A stretch of 10,982 nt of DNA from Chthoniobacterales bacterium (GTDB taxonomy: Bacteria > Verrucomicrobiota > Verrucomicrobiia > Chthoniobacterales > Chthoniobacteraceae). This document shows, one piece after another, positions 2,893 through 10,982 of the stretch; position 1 is the first letter of the stretch; the number at the start of each line of letters is the position of its first letter. A model generated the notes under the pieces. The model worked only from the letters and a program-made list of their open reading frames with translations, was not told the DNA's origin and ran no database searches. The DNA is taken from contig JBBQZX010000048.1 of the NCBI GenBank assembly GCA_038207335.1, forward strand, positions 1-10,982. Reading direction: 5' to 3'. A program made the translations under genes and the position numbers.

Positions 2893-3243
2893 CTAATACT
2901 CGTCGGCGAGCATGATCGTGAGGACGCGCTCGATCTCGTCGGGGTCGCTCGGCTCGTCGGCAAACTCGAGCGCGGGATCGTAGTAATCAATTTTCCAGAA
3001 GAGCGTCTGTCCCTCGAACTCGAAGGCGCCGAAATCATGTTCGCCATGGGGATCGTTCGCGGGGGTGAAGGCGTCAAAGGTGCGCACCGCGGCGAGTACC
3101 GTGATGACCTTCTCCGCGCCGAGGGCGCGCACACCGTGGGTAAGGAAGACGTGACCGCCTTCGCCCGTCCGCCGGAACGCGTCATTAAGACCGGCGATGG
3201 CCTCATCGTGCGGGTCGGGGAAGCTTGCAGAAGATGTGTCCAT
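2893..3243 (-). CDS. DUF3768 domain-containing protein
   Basis: Motifs IAGLNDAFRR, VRTFDAFTPANDPHGEHDFG, FWKIDYYD and RVLTIMLADEY are all typical of DUF3768. Confidence 0.93.
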   Translation of the reverse strand: MDTSSASFPDPHDEAIAGLNDAFRRTGEGGHVFLTHGVRALGAEKVITVLAAVRTFDAFTPANDPHGEHDFGAFEFEGQTLFWKIDYYDPALEFADEPSDPDEIERVLTIMLADEY

Positions 3244-3255
3244 GGTAATTGTGTG

Positions 3256-3861
3256 TTAGTCGCTACTAATCTCGACCTTTTGTGCGGGGCGTTCCGCGTC
3301 TCCGGGGCGGCGCGCTCGCTCTTCGCACGTGCTCGACACACCAGCCGAAGTCAAGAGAGCGGAGGCTTCCGGAGCGACCTTGACTCGATGCCTTTCACCA
3401 AGAGCCGCGCAAATAAATTCGCTTCCGTAGATCAAGTAGTGTGCAGCATATTTTATTAATGCTCGTTTATCTAGCACCACAAAGCAGCAACCTTCATCGA
3501 TATCGATTCCGGATGTAAGCGTAGAGATTTCGTTCTGCTCAACGAGCAGGCATGCTCTCTCCTTAAGCTCACATTTTCTGTGAATACGCAGACCTTCTCG
3601 GAAATACTCACCCGCGTCTGACGTTCTACAACCGTGAAATGTTCTTATTTTTGTCTGTGCGATGGCAACAGCGAGATCATTTATAGTTTCGTCGATCGAT
3701 AGATGTAATTGAGTAGCGAGCAATTCCAGCCATTCCGGGTCGTCGTCGCAGAAATCTTTGTAATCCGATTGGCGCAAAACACTAACTGCCCGCCGACGCA
3801 ATCGCGGATTGAGCCATGCTGACAAAAATGGCACCCAGGTTTCTGGTTTCTCCCACCACAT
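3256..3861 (-). pseudogene. Hypothetical protein with an ADP-ribosyltransferase-like H-G motif, probably 3'-truncated
   Basis: ATG at 3861 (MWWEKP..), or TTG at 3915 overlapping the upstream stop. Contains RTFHGCRTSDAGEYFREGL. The sequence is visibly AT-richer from about 3390 to 3910. The last ~43 codons run through the GC-rich structured leader of DUF3768 and do not look like a real protein tail. Confidence 0.5.
3349..3385 (-). promoter_or_regulatory. GTCAAG...CTTGAC stem-loop upstream of the DUF3768 unit (TTGACT -35-like hexamer in the stem)
   Basis: AGTCAAG (3349-3355) pairs with CTTGACT (3379-3385) around an inner CGGA-ggct-TCCG hairpin. No convincing -10 lies at canonical spacing. Confidence 0.4.
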
Positions 3862-3911
3862 CTCAGCACGAAAACTTTGCACTGTAACCAGCTCTACGGC
3901 GGCCGTTGTTC

Positions 3912-5087
3912 TCAAAACGGCTGAACGGCTTTGAAAATACCAGTCTTGGTCATTTCCCGCCTAATTTTAAAACGGGTGAACGACTCCACCACATCTATAT
4001 ATTGAAGTCCGTCGAAGTTGATGTCCTCCCAGCTGCTTCGTGGCACAACCACGGAGAAGAGGTATTCGTCTTTCTCCTCGCCTGTTGTCTTGCTTCTCCT
4101 CTGGGAATACCCGGACAGTGTAACTTCCTGAACCGTCGGCAACATTACGAAGGCTTCACCAAGCAAACGAAAGCCAATGGAATGAATGTGCGTGGCGTAC
4201 ATCTTCTGAATGTTAGTCGGCCCCAGTTCCCTGACTGACAATCGGTATCCCCGCAGAGGGACTGAGGCCGTCTTGATCGGCATGTCTTCCACCTCTGGTA
4301 GATCAACATCAAAGGCTAGGTGTGTTCCACCGTCCCGCACCTCGAAGGAAGCGATTGTTTCTCGGGGCCATACAATGTCCATCAAGACTTCCCCGAAGAA
4401 CGCTTCCATCGCGTCAGGATCACCAGAGACCGCCTTTGCCACGAGCTCATGTTTTTGTCTCTCGGCGTCCTCGAACCGTGCCTTCGCTGCCTCCCATTCC
4501 CGAAGCTCTGCCTCGAAATCGACTTGGGCGTTAGCATTCTCAGTTTTGATCTTCGCCGCGTTGCCCTTGAAGAAGTTGGCGAAAAACCCGAGTGCTTTGG
4601 GCGCCGGCTGAATCGGACGAGGAACATCAAAGCTCTGGGGCTGATAGGTTGGGGAGTCGTTCGGTGATGGTGCGTGAAGGTGCAATTCCCCCAGCGCCTC
4701 CACCTGTGCATTGATCTCGTCACACTTCTCCTGAATCAGTGCTCTGATAGCCGGCCCTTGCTGTTTCTTCGCGGTCTCAATCAGAGCCTCAGATACCGGA
4801 TTCCCGTCGGAGTCCTTGAAGGTAATCACTCCTTCGTCATCGACAGAGGCGCTGAGAAGTAAGGTCACGGTGGTTTTAGGCGGCCTCCTGGGGACACCGC
4901 CTCCGCCGCTCAGGGCTTGGCGGGAATACAAACCTGTTCCGGGTATGCCGGTATTAAGAAAATTTCCCCGTTTGCCGATCCCGACGGATGCACCACGAGG
5001 GCCAAGTGTCCAACTGGCACCACTCCCGCTCAGGTTCATCCTGATGCCGGGGGCCAGCTTGATGGATTTCCTGAAACGTAACGACAT
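3912..5087 (-). CDS. DUF4236 domain-containing protein
   Basis: The N-terminal MSLRFRKSIKLAPGIRMNLSGSG.S.TLG..G......G...NTGIPGTGLY is the DUF4236 signature. A coiled coil and an alpha/beta C-domain follow. ATG at 5087 is preferred over TTG at 5096. Confidence 0.9.
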   Translation of the reverse strand: MSLRFRKSIKLAPGIRMNLSGSGASWTLGPRGASVGIGKRGNFLNTGIPGTGLYSRQALSGGGGVPRRPPKTTVTLLLSASVDDEGVITFKDSDGNPVSEALIETAKKQQGPAIRALIQEKCDEINAQVEALGELHLHAPSPNDSPTYQPQSFDVPRPIQPAPKALGFFANFFKGNAAKIKTENANAQVDFEAELREWEAAKARFEDAERQKHELVAKAVSGDPDAMEAFFGEVLMDIVWPRETIASFEVRDGGTHLAFDVDLPEVEDMPIKTASVPLRGYRLSVRELGPTNIQKMYATHIHSIGFRLLGEAFVMLPTVQEVTLSGYSQRRSKTTGEEKDEYLFSVVVPRSSWEDINFDGLQYIDVVESFTRFKIRREMTKTGIFKAVQPF

Positions 5088-5095
5088 GCTACTCA

Positions 5096-5123
5096 ATAAT
5101 ACTTACAAAACTAATCTATGCAA
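5096..5123 (-). promoter_or_regulatory. Putative sigma70 promoter of the DUF4236 gene
   Basis: Minus strand TTGCAT-16 nt-TATTAT, ending 8 nt before the ATG, in an AT-rich intergenic region. Confidence 0.45.
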
Positions 5124-5145
5124 TCATAAGCTTTATTTCCGTTAA

Positions 5146-5754
5146 TTACCTCAACGAAAAGCTACCGAGGTAGGTGGGGTTGTCGCCGGAGGTGCAGGTG
5201 ACGAGGCCAACAAAATCCCAGCTGCCTTCCTTGTTCGTCAACGTTCCCGAGCAATTGCCGGAAGCGAACAGAATGGCGGTGCCGCTGATGCTCCCCTGTA
5301 AACTTCCTCTCCCCATAAACTTCCCCGTCTCATAGGCGTACGCCTTGATAGGCTCGCCGATCTGAAGAGCGAAAAACGTCAGCATTTCCCGCTGTTTCTG
5401 CGTGGCATTCTCCGGTGCCACCAAGTTAACCGAGAAGACGCCCACGGCCTTGAAGGCGGCACGAAAGGCGAGGGCGCGCATGGTTGGGTCGGCGCTCGCA
5501 TATGCCGTCGTGATGGCGAGCTCGGCATAGGCTGGGTTGCCGCTGTTCACCATGACGTTGAACGCGGCCACCCTCGTGCTCGTATCGGAGCTCTCGAGGG
5601 CCGCCTTGGGCGCGACCGAGGTGCCCTGCCCCGCTTGCGCGACCATGCCCGTGGCCGATCCGGCGGCATAGGTTTCGTGTGGTTGCGCGAACAGGACAAT
5701 TGCGCCCGCGGTCGCCGCCGCAATGACGGTACCGGCCAATCTCATCCGCATCAT
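5146..5754 (-). CDS. Secreted hypothetical protein (~202 aa)
   Basis: A G-rich SD precedes ATG 5754. The N-terminus MMRMRLAGTVIAAATAGAIVLFAQP..TYA resembles a signal peptide. A helical HEAT-like middle is followed by a beta-rich C-terminus with two Cys. The ORF-track extension to 5883 overlaps the relaxase gene and is unlikely. Confidence 0.7.
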   Translation of the reverse strand: MMRMRLAGTVIAAATAGAIVLFAQPHETYAAGSATGMVAQAGQGTSVAPKAALESSDTSTRVAAFNVMVNSGNPAYAELAITTAYASADPTMRALAFRAAFKAVGVFSVNLVAPENATQKQREMLTFFALQIGEPIKAYAYETGKFMGRGSLQGSISGTAILFASGNCSGTLTNKEGSWDFVGLVTCTSGDNPTYLGSFSLR

Positions 5755-5840
5755 TGTCCCCCCATCTGTAGCGGCAGCCCCGACGTGCCGCCCCGGATTT
5801 GATCGTGTTGTGCGGCCGAAACCCAACTCGGCCGATTCGG

Positions 5841-6827
5841 TTATAAATCCAAGATCCGCTCTTCTCCCCGCGCATTCTTCCACGGTGCGCGGAGGATGTC
5901 CTCGTGCGCCTCGATCGTTGCCAGATCGGTGGCCAGATAGAAGTTGGGCTGACGGTCACCGCTTGCCTGCTTCGCGGCTTCGACCATGCCGGCCACTCTC
6001 CCCTGCCCCTTCGCGGTCACGGTGAGCACGCGAAAGCCGCGGAAGCCGAAGCGCTGTGTCTGGATGGATTGGGCGTGGGTCGCCTGGTAGGCGAAGTACT
6101 TGTGGAAGAGCGTCGGCTTCCTGGTGTTCAGCAAGTTCTCCGGTGCAATCGTCTCGGAACCGCGATCGGCCTCGAGCATGAACCACAGCCGGTTCTTGCC
6201 CTCCGGCTCGTCGAGAAATTGCAGGCCGAACACCTTGTCCGGCACCACCGGCAAGCGGAGCTGGGTGCCCTCCCATGGCGCTTTAATCTGCCAGGTGAAC
6301 GGCGTCCTCGCCCGACGCACCTCTTCGGCCGCGCCGGCCAGGATCTCGCGCGGCGAGATGAGGCGGACGTTGCCGCGCCGTTTGCACATGCGCTCGAAGG
6401 CGAGCATGACGTCGGCGACGAGGAGCGTGTGTTCGACGTGACGACTGCCGACCTCGCGGTTCTTGTCGCGCCAGCGGGTGCGGCCGACGGCAATGCCGGC
6501 CTCTTCGGTGAGGAAGCGGGCACCCTTGTCGCCGAGCGCGTAGACCGTCGGCCGGGCGCCGGATGCCGAGCGGTACGCCCACTGCTCTTCGGGCCGGTCG
6601 AGGAATCCAATGTCGTAGAGCGCGCGCAGCCGGCGGAGGGTCTGCTGCTCGCTCCAACCATGGAGGAGCAACAGCGAGGTGATGTGCGAGGAGCGGAGGA
6701 AGCGGTATTCGGCAACGAGCCGCACGATCGCGGCGTCGCGTTCGGTAACCTCGACACGCTCGACCTCGCCGCGTGGCCGGCGCCTGAAGCGGGGAGCGCG
6801 GTGGGGTGTCTCGTTTGGTGCCTCCAT
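5841..6827 (-). CDS. Replication-relaxation (Replic_Relax, MOBC-like) relaxase, 328 aa
   Basis: N-terminal wHTH: TERDAAIVRLVAEYRFLRSSHI..RRLRALYDIGFLDRP..VYALGDKGA. It also has HTLLVAD and a PD-(D/E)xK-like nuclease motif VVPDKVF...FMLEADRGSE. Start placed at ATG 6827 (MEAPNE), where coding-like composition begins. Confidence 0.92.
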   Translation of the reverse strand: MEAPNETPHRAPRFRRRPRGEVERVEVTERDAAIVRLVAEYRFLRSSHITSLLLLHGWSEQQTLRRLRALYDIGFLDRPEEQWAYRSASGARPTVYALGDKGARFLTEEAGIAVGRTRWRDKNREVGSRHVEHTLLVADVMLAFERMCKRRGNVRLISPREILAGAAEEVRRARTPFTWQIKAPWEGTQLRLPVVPDKVFGLQFLDEPEGKNRLWFMLEADRGSETIAPENLLNTRKPTLFHKYFAYQATHAQSIQTQRFGFRGFRVLTVTAKGQGRVAGMVEAAKQASGDRQPNFYLATDLATIEAHEDILRAPWKNARGEERILDL

Positions 6828-6833
6828 GGGGTC

Positions 6834-6855
6834 AGTATAACAAACGCAAAGTATA
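6834..6855 (-). promoter_or_regulatory. Extended -10 promoter giving a leaderless relaxase mRNA
   Basis: Minus strand TGTTATACT-gacccc-ATG, with 6 nt between the -10 and the ATG and no SD. A second TATACT lies at 6850-6855. Confidence 0.6.
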
Positions 6856-7050
6856 GCGTGCAGGGCATGGAGGTCACGGCACGGCAATCTCCGGACTATG
6901 TGCGAACATGTTCCGTAATGGTGCGGTATGTGTGGGTATAGGCTAAAAGAAAAGATGGGGATACTAGAAACCCCTTCGCACCCAATGCGTATCTCCACAA
7001 TTACCCGGTGCCCATAAAAGGAGCCGATCGAGCTCATTCCGCTCGTGCCG

Positions 7051-8325
7051 TTACTTACCCGACCACCTTTCGATCTTCCCCTCGACCTCCGCCCGCGGCC
7101 GGCAGAAGTGCCGGCGGGAACGCGCGGCGGCGAGCTCCCGCCGGCCAACGTCTGTCTCGAGAGGTGGAAGCGTTCGCGCGAGAAAGGGCTCGCGCACTTC
7201 GCCACCGGTCATGAGTTTGACACACACCTCGAACCGCGACAATTCGAGCAAGGTCGTCGCCGGATAGGGAGCGAACTCACGCTCGAGCAAGGGCGCGTCC
7301 TGGGCGCCAAGGCGGAAGGCGATCATGGTGCCGACGTTGCCGAAGACGGCGGCGGCGATCTCGTCCGGAAGCTGGTCGAGGTACTGATGGGCCAGGGTCA
7401 GGTGAAGCCCGTACTTGCGGGCCTCGGAGAGCAGATCGGCGAAGCTCGTGGTGGTGAAGGCATGGAACTCGTCGACGACGAGGTGGAAGGGTTCGCGCAT
7501 CGCTTCCGGCATCTCGGCGCGGGCGAGCGCCGCGGTGGCGAAGCTCGAGACGATGAGCGAGCCGAGGAAGTTCGCCTCCTGCTCGCCGAGCGCGCCCTTG
7601 GCCAGGTTGGCGATCAGGATGCGGCGGTTGTCCATGGCGAAGCGCGGATCGAAGGCGCGCCGCGCCTGGCCGAGAATGGCGCGAAGGGCCGGATTGCCGA
7701 GGAGCGCGCCGACCTTGTTCTGCAGCGGCGCGATTGCTTCGGCGCGAAAGCGCTGATCCCAGCGGCCGAACTCGTCTTGCCAGAACGACCGCACCCGGAC
7801 GTCGTCGGCGTAGCCAACGACCCGCTCACGGTAGGCCTCGTCGGCGAGCATCCGCGACACACCGAGGAGCGACACCCCCATCCCCGGGGGACAGGAGAGC
7901 AGGGCGGCCAGGGTGTTGTAGGCGATGTACTCACTGCGCGGCCCCCAGCTGTCGGCGAACAGGTGGCGGAAGATCGCGGTCACGCTCGAGGCGACATACG
8001 GCCGCCGCTCCGGGGGCACATGGGCGAGCACGTTCCACGAGAAGGCGAAGTCCGGGTCGGCGGGATCGAGGTAGGCGACCTCATCGAGCCGGTGCGGTGG
8101 AATGCAGTCGAGCAGGGCCTCGGCCTCGTCGCCGTGCGGATCGATGAAGGCAAAGCCCCTGCCCGCCTCGATGTCCTGGACGAGGAGGTTATGGAGCAGG
8201 GTCGTCTTGCCCGAGCCCGAGCGGCCGATGATCCAGCAGTGGAGCGCCCGGTCGCGTTGGGAAAGACCGACGGGTATCTCCCCGTCCCAGAGCGGCCGCA
8301 TCGCAATGTAAGAAGGATTGTCCAT
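7051..8325 (-). CDS. Type IV secretion coupling-protein-like ATPase (TrwB/TraD/HerA-FtsK superfamily), no N-terminal TM anchor, ~424 aa
   Basis: Motifs H.WIIGRSGSGKT (Walker A), FIDPHGD, HLVVDEFH (Walker B), EARKYGLHLTLAHQY and FGNVGTMIAFRLG. Start placed at ATG 8325 (MDNPSY). Confidence 0.92.
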   Translation of the reverse strand: MDNPSYIAMRPLWDGEIPVGLSQRDRALHCWIIGRSGSGKTTLLHNLLVQDIEAGRGFAFIDPHGDEAEALLDCIPPHRLDEVAYLDPADPDFAFSWNVLAHVPPERRPYVASSVTAIFRHLFADSWGPRSEYIAYNTLAALLSCPPGMGVSLLGVSRMLADEAYRERVVGYADDVRVRSFWQDEFGRWDQRFRAEAIAPLQNKVGALLGNPALRAILGQARRAFDPRFAMDNRRILIANLAKGALGEQEANFLGSLIVSSFATAALARAEMPEAMREPFHLVVDEFHAFTTTSFADLLSEARKYGLHLTLAHQYLDQLPDEIAAAVFGNVGTMIAFRLGAQDAPLLEREFAPYPATTLLELSRFEVCVKLMTGGEVREPFLARTLPPLETDVGRRELAAARSRRHFCRPRAEVEGKIERWSGK

Positions 8326-8327
8326 AC

Positions 8328-8524
8328 CGCGAAGCCAGCCGCCGCGGCTAACCCGGGTATGAGCACCAAATGGGAAGCATGCTGATCCCCGAGTAACTCC
8401 GCTGCGTGTTCCCATTTGCGTGGCCGACGCCCGAGATTTGGGTGCTCTCGGCGACGGCCCGGAGTTCGCCGGCATGCGGTTCTTGGTGTGACCGGCCGGC
8501 GAGGTAGCGGAGGCTGGCTTCGCG
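8328..8524. other. Multibranch structured element in the coupling-protein 5' region
   Basis: Closing stem 8328-8345/8507-8524 (17 of 18 bp). Inner stems: 8367-8376/8409-8418 (10 of 10), 8424-8458, 8353-8357/8458-8462 and 8466-8473/8495-8502 (8 of 8). Confidence 0.7.
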
Positions 8525-8550
8525 AGACGATGAAGTTGTGTAGTTCCTCC

Positions 8551-8559
8551 ATTCTACCA
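8551..8559 (-). promoter_or_regulatory. Putative extended -10 promoter for the coupling-protein gene
   Basis: Minus strand TGGTAGAAT, just outside the structured element. Confidence 0.5.
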
Positions 8560-8599
8560 CGCCATCCCCCGCCCCCTTCTCTCTAACCAGTTGATAACT

Positions 8600-8627
8600 T
8601 TGACGAATTTCAGTCATTTGCTACTCT
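8600..8627 (+). promoter_or_regulatory. Putative sigma70 promoter of the primase gene
   Basis: TTGACG-16 nt-TACTCT with a TGn extension. An imperfect palindrome, TGACGAATTTCAGTCA (8601-8616), overlaps the -35. Confidence 0.55.
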
Positions 8628-8665
8628 CTTGTGTAGATTGTACATCCGCACAAGGAAGCAACCCC

Positions 8666-9694
8666 ATGGCGAACAAGAGCTGGTATGACTTCAGGGAGAT
8701 CAAACAGCACGGCGACTTCCTCGCCGTGCTCGCCCACTACGACATCGAGGCCACCGGCAAGGGCGCGCGGCGGAAAATCCTCTGCCCGTTCCACCCGGAG
8801 CGAAAGCCGTCGTGCACCATCAACCTCGAGCGCCGGCTGTTTCACTGCTTCGGCTGCGAGGCCGGCGGCGATCTGCTCGACTTCGTGATGCGCAAGGAGG
8901 CCTGCACGGCGGCCGACGCCGCCCGGATCGTGGCTGCGTGCTCGAACATCGCGCCGGTGGCGCGTGAGGGAGCGCGTCAGCGCGCAAAATCGCTCCCAGA
9001 AGCGCGACAAGAGCCGCGGCCAGACAAAACGTCGTCGAATGCGGAAAAACCGCTCCACGGGCCTCCTGTGCGCCCAGGCAAGGAGAAAGCCGAGAAGGAG
9101 GAGAACAAACCCCTCGCCTTCACCCTCAAGCTCGACCCGGCGCATCCGTACCTGGCCCTGCGCGGCGTGACGCCCGAGCTCGCCGCGACCTTCGGCCTTG
9201 GCGCTTGCGCCAAGGGCCTGCTGCAAGGGCGGATCTGCATTCCGATCCACAACGAGGCAGGCGCGCTCGTCGCCTACGCCGGCCGCTGGCCCGGCGACGA
9301 CGGCTGGCCCGTGGGCGAGGACAAGTACAAGCTCCCGGCCAACTTCAAGAAGAGCCATGTGCTGTTCAACCGGCACCGGGTCGAAGGGGCAACGCGCCTT
9401 GCCCTCGTCGAGGGCTACTGGTCGGTCTTCCGGCTCCATGCGCTCGGCATTCCCGCCGTGGCACTCATGGGCCGGTCGCTCTCCGCCGAGCAGGAAGAGC
9501 TTCTCTCCGATCACGGCGCCGATCGCCTCATCCTTCTCCTCGACGGCGATGCGCCGGGGCGGGCGGCCACGGCCGAGCTCCTCCCCCGCCTCGCCCGCCG
9601 GTTCTTTGTCCTTACCCCGTCATTGCCGGACGGCGCGGCACCGGATACGGTGGCCGCCGAGTTCTTCGATCCACCCAACTTTTTCGTGCGCTAG
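8666..9694 (+). CDS. Mobile-element DNA primase (zf-CHC2 + Toprim), DnaG-like, 342 aa
   Basis: Zinc finger CPFH..RKPS..FHCFGC..GGD, then GRICIPIHN..G.LVAYAGR, KY..P..FKKSHVLFN, and Toprim LVEG...VALMG...LLLDGDAPG. SD AAGGA precedes ATG 8666. There is no DnaB-binding C-domain, so this is not the chromosomal dnaG. Confidence 0.92.
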   Translation: MANKSWYDFREIKQHGDFLAVLAHYDIEATGKGARRKILCPFHPERKPSCTINLERRLFHCFGCEAGGDLLDFVMRKEACTAADAARIVAACSNIAPVAREGARQRAKSLPEARQEPRPDKTSSNAEKPLHGPPVRPGKEKAEKEENKPLAFTLKLDPAHPYLALRGVTPELAATFGLGACAKGLLQGRICIPIHNEAGALVAYAGRWPGDDGWPVGEDKYKLPANFKKSHVLFNRHRVEGATRLALVEGYWSVFRLHALGIPAVALMGRSLSAEQEELLSDHGADRLILLLDGDAPGRAATAELLPRLARRFFVLTPSLPDGAAPDTVAAEFFDPPNFFVR

Positions 9695-9700
9695 CACGAC

Positions 9701-9732
9701 CCCCCGCGCGCTTTGGCGTCGCGGGGGCTTTC
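9701..9732 (+). terminator. Probable intrinsic terminator after the primase gene
   Basis: CCCCCGCG-CGC-tttg-GCG-t-CGCGGGGG followed by CTTTC, 6 nt after the stop. The U-tract is weak. Confidence 0.55.
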
Positions 9733-9738
9733 TGATTC

Positions 9739-10509
9739 ACGGGGTGGTGGGCGGGGATGCGTCTCCTCCCCTGCATTCCTGCATTGTGGTGCGTGGGTGA
9801 CCACGCAACCCGGGTCGCCCTCCGGCGACACCCCGTTTCCGCGCGGGTCGTCGGGCCGGATTGCTCCACGAGACGCGCCTCGCGGCGAGTGGGAGCGCAG
9901 CGTAGCGGAGCGATAGCAATCCGGAAGCGCTAGCGCCCGACTTCGATGGTTTCGGTCGACGTCCACCGCCCGCCCAAGGGAGAGAGGACGGAGACCCGGA
10001 GCGCGCTACCGGACGCCTTTGCCCGGCAAAGGTGTTCGCTAGCGAGCGGAGCCGATGGTTCGAGCCGCCTATCGGACACTTTAGTGTTTGATAGCCGGCT
10101 GGAACCATCGGGAAAGCATCGAAGTCGGGCGGTAGCACGACGACCAGCGCGGAACCCGTACGGCTTGCAATCGCAAGCCTTTTGCGCCAATCGGCGCACC
10201 ACGAGCCCCTACATAGCTAGGATTGTAGGGGCTTTTGTCGGGGCAAAGGCCCCCGCTAGGGCGGCCTGCACCGACAATCCGTGAGCCTTCCCGCGAGCGT
10301 CAAGGACAACCGGACGGCTTCGCTGTTCGCTTGGACGCAGGCACGAGGCGGAAGGCTCACCCCTTCCCTTCGCGCCGTTGGCGCGAGAACCGGTTACGGA
10401 AAAAGGATCGGGGCGGCGGTCATGGACGGACGGCGACGACGCACAAGGCACGGCAACCGGACAGGTTCCCTGCTCCGCTTGCCGTGCTGTGGTGCAGTCG
10501 GTTCGATCC
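9739..10509 (+). other. Large, densely structured non-coding region (candidate single-strand origin or large ncRNA)
   Basis: Nested stems: 9739-46/9829-36, 9837-53/10138-54 (16 of 17), 9856-65/9915-24, 9929-53/10112-36 (23 of 25), 10013-35, 10052-10111, 10162-79, 10183-98, 10204-33, 10235-41/10271-77, 10281-91/10350-60, 10370-86, 10405-10/10504-09, 10437-10500. No credible ORF. Confidence 0.8.
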
Positions 10510-10772
10510 GTGGTTTGGTTAGCGCTTGGTGTTGTGTTCGTGCGGGTGCACGCCACGCGTCAGTGCCGCGGCCATGGTGTCCGCCACCAAACCAAAGGCC
10601 TTAGCCAACCCGAGATGGGCCGGCGACATCGGCTCATCGTAGAGCCCCTGATTGATCTCGAAAAAATCCCGTAGATCGACTTTGCTGAGCATGGATGTCT
10701 CCCGTAAAGCCGCATTTCGTCTACTCCGCACGCTAGATGGATCATGATTGCCGGCGCACAAGGCACGGCAAC
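10440..10772 (+). repeat. 18-bp perfect direct repeat CGCACAAGGCACGGCAAC, two copies
   Basis: Identical copies at 10440-10457 and 10755-10772. The core GGCACGGCAA also occurs at 6878-6887. Confidence 0.9.
10519..10692 (-). CDS. Putative small protein (57 aa, MLSKVDLRDFFEINQGLYDE...)
   Basis: SD-like GGGAG 7 nt before ATG 10692, TAA at 10519-10521. It occupies the one weakly structured gap in the right-hand region. No family recognised. Confidence 0.45.
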   Translation of the reverse strand: MLSKVDLRDFFEINQGLYDEPMSPAHLGLAKAFGLVADTMAAALTRGVHPHEHNTKR

Positions 10773-10799
10773 AGCCTGCGCCGGTGTGGTGTGGTCGGT
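10751..10799 (+). other. Candidate oriT/dso (hairpin plus nic-like sequence)
   Basis: The CCGGCGCA/TGCGCCGG stem (10751-58/10777-84) carries the repeat core in its loop and is followed by GTGTG|GTCGGT (10789-10799). Confidence 0.4.
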
Positions 10800-10982
10800 G
10801 GGATACTGTCGCGGACTTTCGGAGCGGCGGATTGGGGGAAAACGGATCGATCCTCGGGAAGGCGACCATCCCGGTGATCCGCCGGATGCTTTGCGGGGTT
10901 TCTTCACGGGTGGCGCCCCAAGTCGCGCCGCCATGCTTCACCAAGGCCGGGAGCGGCCGGGCTCTCCCTGCCGGATCAGAGC

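Follow-up and report, generated by a model that had tools for sequence, protein, structure and literature searches.

What is the function of a long folded tract that lies next to genes for a relaxase, a coupling ATPase, and a primase in a bacterial contig? The tract is located at 9739–10509 of a 10,982-nucleotide (nt) stretch of DNA from a Chthoniobacterales bacterium (GenBank assembly GCA_038207335.1, contig JBBQZX010000048.1), the whole of which we analyzed and refer to as the window. The window is a complete contig of a genome of 5.17 Mb in 53 contigs (94.7% complete), and a second copy of it was not found elsewhere in that genome. The relaxase (5841–6827) and ATPase (7051–8325) genes are on the – strand, and the primase gene (8666–9694) is on the + strand. 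An earlier note, made from the sequence alone, described these genes as a candidate replication and mobilization module whose relaxase nicks the + strand near 10793, with the tract as a folded single-stranded region for the primase. Our analysis supports a MOBC-like mobilization module, a + strand that is predicted to be processed, and a tract that acts as folded single-stranded DNA. The tract does not, however, appear to be a separate priming region upstream of a nick at 10793. We consider it probable that the core at 9837–10245 is itself the transfer origin (oriT) of a CloDF13-type (MOBC) module, with a predicted CloDF13-like nick at 10123/10124 of the + strand, surrounded by a nested inverted repeat. 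We favor this identification because the mapped nick of CloDF13 shares the two-stem geometry and polarity, and because none of 7061 background sites sampled from the host genome passes the same descriptor.

A conserved two-stem fold upstream of the ATPase–relaxase operon

The tract gave the strongest folding signal in a 200-nt scan of the window. Its z-scores against 20 shuffles each were –11.8 (+ strand) and –11.0 (– strand) for the DNA fold and –13.9 (+) and –9.6 (–) for the RNA fold. Of the approximately 770 nt of + strand-biased structure claimed earlier, the structure was thus confirmed, whereas the bias, although real, is small over the whole tract. Rfam (release 15) contained no match to the tract at E ≤ 1.

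The part of the core at 9837–10154 is a nested inverted repeat that is conserved in relatives from several phyla and is described here on the + strand. The conserved outer stem pairs 9837–9856 with 10135–10154 (inverted repeat I17), and its single mismatch in the window, A10146, is a pairing C in the relatives X2, X3, and X7. A side branch at 9857–9928 contains clustered GCGNAGC/GCGNNAGC DNA mini-hairpins (at 9895, 9900, 9905, 9910, and 9927), a candidate priming signal whose meaning we infer from the description in PMC13037366. The inner stem (inverted repeat I3) consists of a 5' arm at 9929–9953, the predicted splint, and a 3' arm at 10112–10136, separated by a variable branched interior (9954–10111) with an arm-to-arm span of 62 to 183 nt over 21 loci. 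The predicted nick lies in the 3' arm between A10123 and G10124, directly before an invariant GTCG (10124–10127), with a junction mini-hairpin, GCGGTAGC, at 10129–10136. Further downstream, TGTMGGGG units at 10205–10245, one inverted and two direct with a 12-bp period, lie 82 to 120 nt 3' of the predicted nick and form a candidate binding site for the relaxase. The first CCCCTACA-type unit is found at G+80 to +85 in 12 of the 21 loci and is often accompanied by direct copies at a 12-bp spacing, and TGTMGGGG-type repeats are also present in the loci L177 to L179. These repeats were ruled out as arm sites of a tyrosine integrase, because elements with a serine recombinase have them too, at a constant distance from GTCG.

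Twelve loci with the divergent gene order of the window (type B), which were chosen by eye, share the outer stem, side branch, inner stem, and variable interior. A profile of the 3' junction, which yielded no match on reversed decoys, then located the same element upstream of the ATPase gene in loci with a co-directional gene order (type A). GTCG is invariant in all 21 loci retained, inner-stem positions –4 to +4, +6, and +7 form Watson-Crick pairs of as many as four types in every one of them, and folding favors the motif strand in 20. In 11 well-aligned loci, 95.1% of cells are paired in the named structure and 31 cells are changed on both sides; none of 500 shuffles scored as high, slid structures reached 36 to 54%, and RNAalifold recovered the same stems. 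Pairing is therefore kept on both sides of the predicted nick while the sequence on its 5' side is free. The fold looks like DNA rather than RNA in its features, with rare G–T pairs (38 of 1625 pairs), tetraloops of the GNYA type (17, versus five GNRA), and 22 copies of GCGNTAGC on the folded strand versus three on the opposite strand (0.7 expected). Mini-hairpins of this last kind are described as far more stable in DNA (PMC13037366).

Direct blastn and k-mer searches of 92 downstream regions gave only two short matches to the window tract, the top k-mer words being radC/ardC-type coding sequence. A strict pattern matched once among 401 genomes of the phylum, in a carrier of the element, and missed the window itself; a relaxed ARAGORN scan returned noise only. 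One locus with a single match at E 0.012 (L164) was left out of the motif set without a fold test.

We analyzed 113 sequences, the window included, and added newly taken stretches for a blind test. The motif lies upstream of the ATPase gene and on the opposite strand in 25 of the 25 loci that hold both, across three gene orders. These are 21 loci with the ATPase gene before the primase gene (17 plus two plus two), the convergent locus L107, and three loci from a blind test, in which the motif was present in all three newly taken stretches with a whole ATPase gene and 11 others gave no match below E 0.5. The duplicates L001, L059, L063, L064, L070, and L077 were excluded from the count that gave the 17, and L007 to L037 (31 of the 37 loci of one search) were left aside as partial or low-identity sequences resembling ordinary DnaG. 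Orientation of the motif relative to the primase flips between loci, and in the co-directional arrangement radC/ardC-type genes, not the fold, come after the primase. The tract thus stands downstream of the primase in the window, as had been noted, whereas across loci it follows the ATPase–relaxase operon; the fold is tied to this operon and not to the primase. The proposal that homologous loci would conserve a structured tract followed by a hairpin and nic motif held for the structured core but not for the motif after it. A quick primase tree placed the motif in basal and derived groups alike and supports nothing further.

Comparison with CloDF13 and other known systems

The nick of CloDF13 has been mapped to GGGTG/GTCGGG (PMC5935869), which corresponds to 9752–9762 (+) of NC_002119, on the opposite strand from the mob gene and upstream of it. 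Two repeats enclose this site: an outer one that forms 14 perfect bp and, within it, an inner one of 19 nt whose 3' arm contains the nick; a hairpin branches off on the 5' side. A two-stem descriptor was defined on the family loci and then applied to CloDF13 and the host genome. The CloDF13 nick scored 16+14, first of 70 GTCG sites (next, 24), and position 10124 of the window scored 17+13. The descriptor finds such origins where sequence search fails. The nick context is GTCGGGCGTGAG in CloDF13 versus GTCGGGCGGTAG at 10124. The exact CloDF13 nic is absent from the window: its 3' half, GTCGGG, matches at 10124, whereas the 5' half is TCGAA and varies together with its stem partner. A blastn search with the CloDF13 origin returned 837 plasmid records, nearly all 95 to 99% identical and therefore too close for a covariation test.

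The window resembles the oriT-mobB-mobC arrangement of CloDF13 (also pMET1, HPI-ECOR31, and ICEKp1) in having an origin on the opposite strand upstream of a coupling-ATPase gene and then a relaxase gene, and in placing the nick context GTCGGGCG in the inner of two nested stems, accompanied by a side hairpin. MOBC origins are described as lying upstream of the coupling-protein gene (bioRxiv 2024.01.30.577996). The inverted repeat gives each strand a GTCGGGCG site, the second being read on the – strand of the inner-stem 5' arm from 9941; one nic site per strand inside an inverted repeat is likewise described for pMET1 and the pMET1/HPI-ECOR31 group (PMC2262945). Unlike CloDF13, in which frames at the 5' end of mob contain hydrophobic segments (hydropathy of approximately 2.0 to 2.2), the window has a soluble ATPase. 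It also has a primase gene, a larger interior, and 12-bp repeats of other sequence, and its family occurs in several phyla, on integrative elements and on plasmid-like replicons.

The TraX/oriT2 system of pAD1 (MOBC), which we compared by description, provides a further parallel. A review describes TraX as having an N-terminal winged helix and a restriction-enzyme-like domain and as binding repeats 70 to 120 bp downstream of nic (PMC12857230), with five direct repeats there versus one inverted and two direct units here, and with a pore encoded by pAD1 itself. Class 8 integrative and mobilizable elements of streptococci resemble the type A relatives in their PF13814 relaxase, own VirD4-like protein, serine recombinase, and lack of a mating pore (PMC5357655, PMC5704250); the available portions of these papers report no primase and do not describe the origin, and the window's own integrase is beyond the contig. 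The single-strand initiation (ssi) sites of G4, St-1, alpha3, and RSF1010 share GCGNNAGC mini-hairpins on one strand and, for RSF1010, an element-encoded primase, whereas the window has a DnaG-like primase and no RepA/RepC-type helicase and initiator.

Modules of the oriT-mobB-mobC kind are already known. New here are the soluble coupling ATPase, the dedicated DnaG-like primase, and the occurrence on integrative elements and plasmid-like replicons. A literature search, with most subscription papers outside its range, found nothing on a primase–ATPase–relaxase family or on splinted religation; Figure S7 of bioRxiv 2024.01.30.577996, on new oriT folds, may show similar folds.

Several observations weigh against a CloDF13-type origin. 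The link to CloDF13 consists of geometry and eight bases and is not demonstrable sequence homology: the origin sequence profile has no match in CloDF13 at E ≤ 1, the relaxase profile matches no CloDF13 frame, and the ATPase profile reaches the mob frame only at E 0.017. The acidic motif of the relaxase is ExD, not ExE, versus the DEE described for MOBC (PMC6736028). Ten of the 31 loci whose ATPase gene precedes the primase gene did not show the motif; four of these offer too little sequence, but L002, L067, and L068 offer plenty. L088 has the motif and a primase with no ATPase or relaxase in the 8 kb upstream. The two strands score alike in L065 and L084, for which the strand was chosen by the short 3' junction. 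Given that the loci are mutually related, 25 of 25 does not correspond to 25 independent events. No VirB4 family match, as a sign of a helper pore, was obtained in the host genome at its 94.7% completeness, and the RepA-like matches in the plasmid-like carriers L123, L159, and L096 are weak and under the Pfam cut-off.

Predicted mechanism and rival explanations

In a CloDF13-type module, the winged-helix domain of the relaxase would bind the 12-bp repeats that lie 80 to 120 nt beyond the nick in the 3' direction, and cleavage just before GTCG would fall to its PD-(D/E)XK-type domain. The soluble ATPase may act as relaxase partner and coupling factor, and the + strand would use the mating pore of another element to exit, the ATPase, relaxase, and primase genes being transferred last. 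More speculatively, because the cut lies in the middle of a stem, the beginning and the end of the transferred strand could pair again along the 5' arm, and the nick that is left could be sealed by ligase. The computed gain for re-pairing of the first 40 nt on the last-transferred arm is 25.7 kcal/mol for the window, 13.9 to 31.3 over the 21 loci, and 11.5 for CloDF13. A mid-stem nick suggests self-splinted religation as a testable answer to how MOBC strands recircularize; such closure, if true, would address the religation question without a covalent intermediate. For MOBC, a covalent DNA intermediate has not been seen, and strand recruitment, transfer, and religation are called open in PMC12857230 and PMC6736028.

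Plasmid primases are described as serving second-strand synthesis in conjugation (PMC4595007), and the element primase might, again more speculatively, initiate the second strand here; candidate start points are the mini-hairpins 5' of the nick. These number 31 on the folded strand versus five on the other strand (approximately 10 expected) and are present in 14 of 21 loci. These features make priming on the fold plausible at most, because the mini-hairpins are missing in the other seven loci and the junction copy also occurs in CloDF13, for which no primase is annotated. A more general scheme, which we offer tentatively and with some doubt, is that MOBC origins are self-splinting, with a mid-stem nick, the other arm transferred last, and closure by ligase without a covalent relaxase, and that in the family of the window a soluble ATPase and the element's own primase, priming on mini-hairpins of the same fold, are added. 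One hairpin might then be nick site, resealing splint, and second-strand origin.

The mini-hairpins also lend themselves to an explanation that we regard as unlikely, in which the fold serves chiefly as a single-strand origin that depends on the primase. The primase would then start at the triplet GTC, the mini-hairpins would be landing sites free of single-stranded DNA–binding protein, and the nick would lie elsewhere. Such an origin would fit the strand bias of GCGNTAGC, the GCGTTAGC carried by the DnaG origins of St-1 and alpha3 (PMC13037366), the primase present in every locus (by selection), and L088, in which primase and motif occur with the relaxase not nearby. Yet the same fold and junction mini-hairpin occur in CloDF13, which lacks an annotated primase gene, GTCG is paired on both sides, the seven loci mentioned have no mini-hairpin 5' of the site, and another conserved nick candidate was looked for and not found. 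It also seems quite unlikely to us that the module is a replicon, with the Replic_Relax protein as initiator, the ATPase as translocase or helicase, and the inverted repeat as an RSF1010-like oriV with a priming site per strand. Replic_Relax is listed for plasmid replication besides relaxation (PMC3424549) and is found with FtsK in Bacillus plasmid prophages (PMC11526630), GTCGGGCG is present on both strands (9941 –, 10124 +), and mating-pore genes were not found in the flanks scanned. Set against this, the geometry equals that of a mapped conjugative nick, most carriers are integrated next to serine or tyrosine recombinases, and the primase is unmatched at E ≤ 1e-30 in the 72,556 plasmids of PLSDB. 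Moreover, several carriers (L123, L159, and L096) have a separate RepA-like gene with ParA/ParB, so that the fold need not be their replication origin. A CloDF13-type transfer origin would also be consistent with the excised circle replicating from the same nick by the rolling-circle mode.

That the tract is a large structured non-coding RNA transcribed past the primase gene is very improbable, despite the RNA z-score on the + strand and strong covariation. G–U pairs are few even with RNA parameters (6.1% versus 8.9% in coding controls), GNYA rather than GNRA loops prevail, a promoter-like site was not found, the position is tied to the start of the ATPase gene on its non-coding strand, and Rfam is without a match. 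Contigs from RNA-library runs cover the relaxase, ATPase, primase, and tract alike; they may hold DNA and cannot rank expression, and, with no tract-only pattern seen in them, they are neutral on this point. We give hardly any credence to the nick at about 10793 after a short hairpin, as originally modeled. The sequence GTGGTCGG, which matches eight bases around the CloDF13 nick, is indeed present at 10791–10798, and two relatives (X2 and X3) cover 10697–10837. The hairpin with which it was paired (10750–10799, +) folds only at chance level (z –0.9), however, the descriptor score of 12+9.5 is that of background, and the equivalent place in homologues is empty of the motif. Locus L001, identical to the window over 3131 nt, leaves its sequence at 10736, before the hairpin, and a sequencing run that is possibly the source shows the same branch. 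Contigs of X6 and X17 cease to match at 10408, and X3 has stem changes at 10754, 10755, 10758, and 10784 among the matches listed. Hairpin and motif are thus not part of the conserved origin.

Genes of the module, carriers, and neighboring features

The gene assignments of the earlier note were upheld. The 328-residue relaxase matches Replic_Relax (PF13814) above the cut-off (E 6e-21), a family that CONJscan treats as MobC (PMC5357655). It combines an N-terminal winged helix with a PD..ExD..K..Y domain, in which H133, P196, D197, E219, D221, K243, and Y247 are invariant in 32 of 32 aligned sequences. In the predicted model (pLDDT of 91.5), residues 24–112 resemble MarR/PadR winged helices (Z up to 9.9, rmsd of 2.3 over 78 residues). 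The top Foldseek rows were the restriction enzymes FokI and PfoI, with weak scores (E 4e-3 to 5e-3), and the rows of a wider structure search were taken up by winged-helix matches.

VirD4/MobB coupling proteins are, as a rule, anchored by a membrane segment. The 424-residue VirD4/TrwB-like ATPase (Pfam TrwB_AAD_bind and TraG-D_C; closest solved relative TrwB, E 1e-11) contains none, its best 19-residue hydropathy being 1.51, and the same applies to 25 of 25 aligned ATPases (≤1.74), which thus lack the anchor expected of a MOBC coupling protein. The position of its gene before that of the relaxase is as expected of a MOBC module.

The stand-alone DnaG-like primase (342 residues) comprises a CHC2 zinc domain and Toprim, without a helicase-binding tail, and scores E 3e-42 against TIGR01391, yet below the family cut-off. 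Residues C40/H43/C61/C64, E249, D293, and D295 are retained in 52 or 53 of 53 sequences; in 47 of the 53, Ser occupies the second acidic position that follows E249. A terminator-like hairpin with a short T-run follows the primase stop at 9700–9732 (+), with comparable structures in relatives, and a terminator scan made no call there. In L115 (515–1500) and L088 (9110–9560), long arrays of repeated hairpins with T-runs lie between primase stop and origin. Among the 11 open reading frames (ORFs) of the window scanned, none belongs to a Rep, helicase, or mating-pore family.

At least 947 relatives of the primase were found. Within the host's class, 19 of 401 genomes carry the primase, and the number of metagenome stretches with it is estimated at about 2500, of which 80 were taken. 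Common as the family is, its primase has no match in PLSDB and no relative in the viral collection, so that this means of gene flow among environmental bacteria has attracted little notice. Among the named carriers are an alphaproteobacterial genome (L004) and assemblies of Acidobacteriota. L001:1–3131 equals window 7606–10736 at 100% identity in an assembly named Thermoanaerobaculia (Acidobacteriota), whereas DUF1549/DUF1553 genes, which are markers of the PVC group, occur in class relatives of the window's own genome; the identity reflects either a very recent cross-phylum transfer or a mis-binned short contig, which makes the assignment of the host uncertain. An alphaproteobacterial host was rejected on account of a one-piece tmRNA.

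The window contig stops before any integrase; relatives show recombinases or tRNA 3' fragments, and no mating-pore families were detected in their flanking ORFs scanned. The type B loci L004, L110, and L130 end in a tRNA 3' fragment shortly past the fold, and L097 has a tyrosine integrase. In type A, the co-directional ATPase, relaxase, and primase genes are followed by radC/ardC/methylase genes, a VirD4-like protein of 1000 residues, and a large serine recombinase; the convergent order was seen once. This second VirD4-like ATPase (approximately 1040 residues; L078:13680–16808, L076:1899–5018, L082:14145–17252) is without a membrane segment and stands between a small membrane protein and the recombinase. 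In one type A element, the serine recombinase adjoins a piece of a comM-like (Mg-chelatase ChlI) gene, a possible integration target (L166:15718–16902 with L076:53–1555), and a second recombinase is found on the other side of that element (L167:7987–9633). Defense-type cargo (SIR2-STALD, TIR-inositol monophosphatase, OLD-like nuclease) occurs in or beside elements at L079:4207–7428 and L083:17453–19000. In L123, about five iteron-like direct repeats (9560–9760) precede a 447-residue RepA-like gene without a Pfam match and then ParB/ParA; this gene and its counterpart in L159 (11792–13207), 39% identical, possibly represent an unrecognized plasmid replicon family.

Past the conserved core, a hairpin at 10434–10502 (+; z –4.6) has no counterpart in homologous loci. 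It contains a direct repeat of 20 to 21 nt (D20) shared with 10752–10772. The 21-nt copies, 10437–10457 and 10752–10772, each open a hairpin and flank a 57-residue ORF (10519–10692, –) that is directed at the origin on the side predicted to transfer first, in what looks like a repeat-bounded cassette. This ORF has no Pfam, NCBIfam, or Atlas match, and its 5' part (10630–10692) matches many unrelated contigs.

On the far side of the relaxase gene, 3384–5813 holds variable cargo (a DUF4236 gene and others). In a relative, a contig of run X17 joins 3384 to 5813 directly, and other contigs join approximately 6032 to approximately 2516–2543. The DUF3768 gene (2893–3243, –) is accessory: it was ruled out as a core gene, with only six of the 113 sequences carrying one, and our literature search found no published work on this family. 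A perfect, terminator-like 20-bp inverted repeat marks the far end of its region (2616–2660). The 44-residue piece encoded at 1–136 has no Pfam match; by its motif it is presumably the 3' end of an IS1595-type transposase. Beside it, a 726-residue pectate-lyase-like protein (194–2374, –) is lower in GC than the mobilization module and has an N-terminus that resembles a leader of Patescibacteria proteins.

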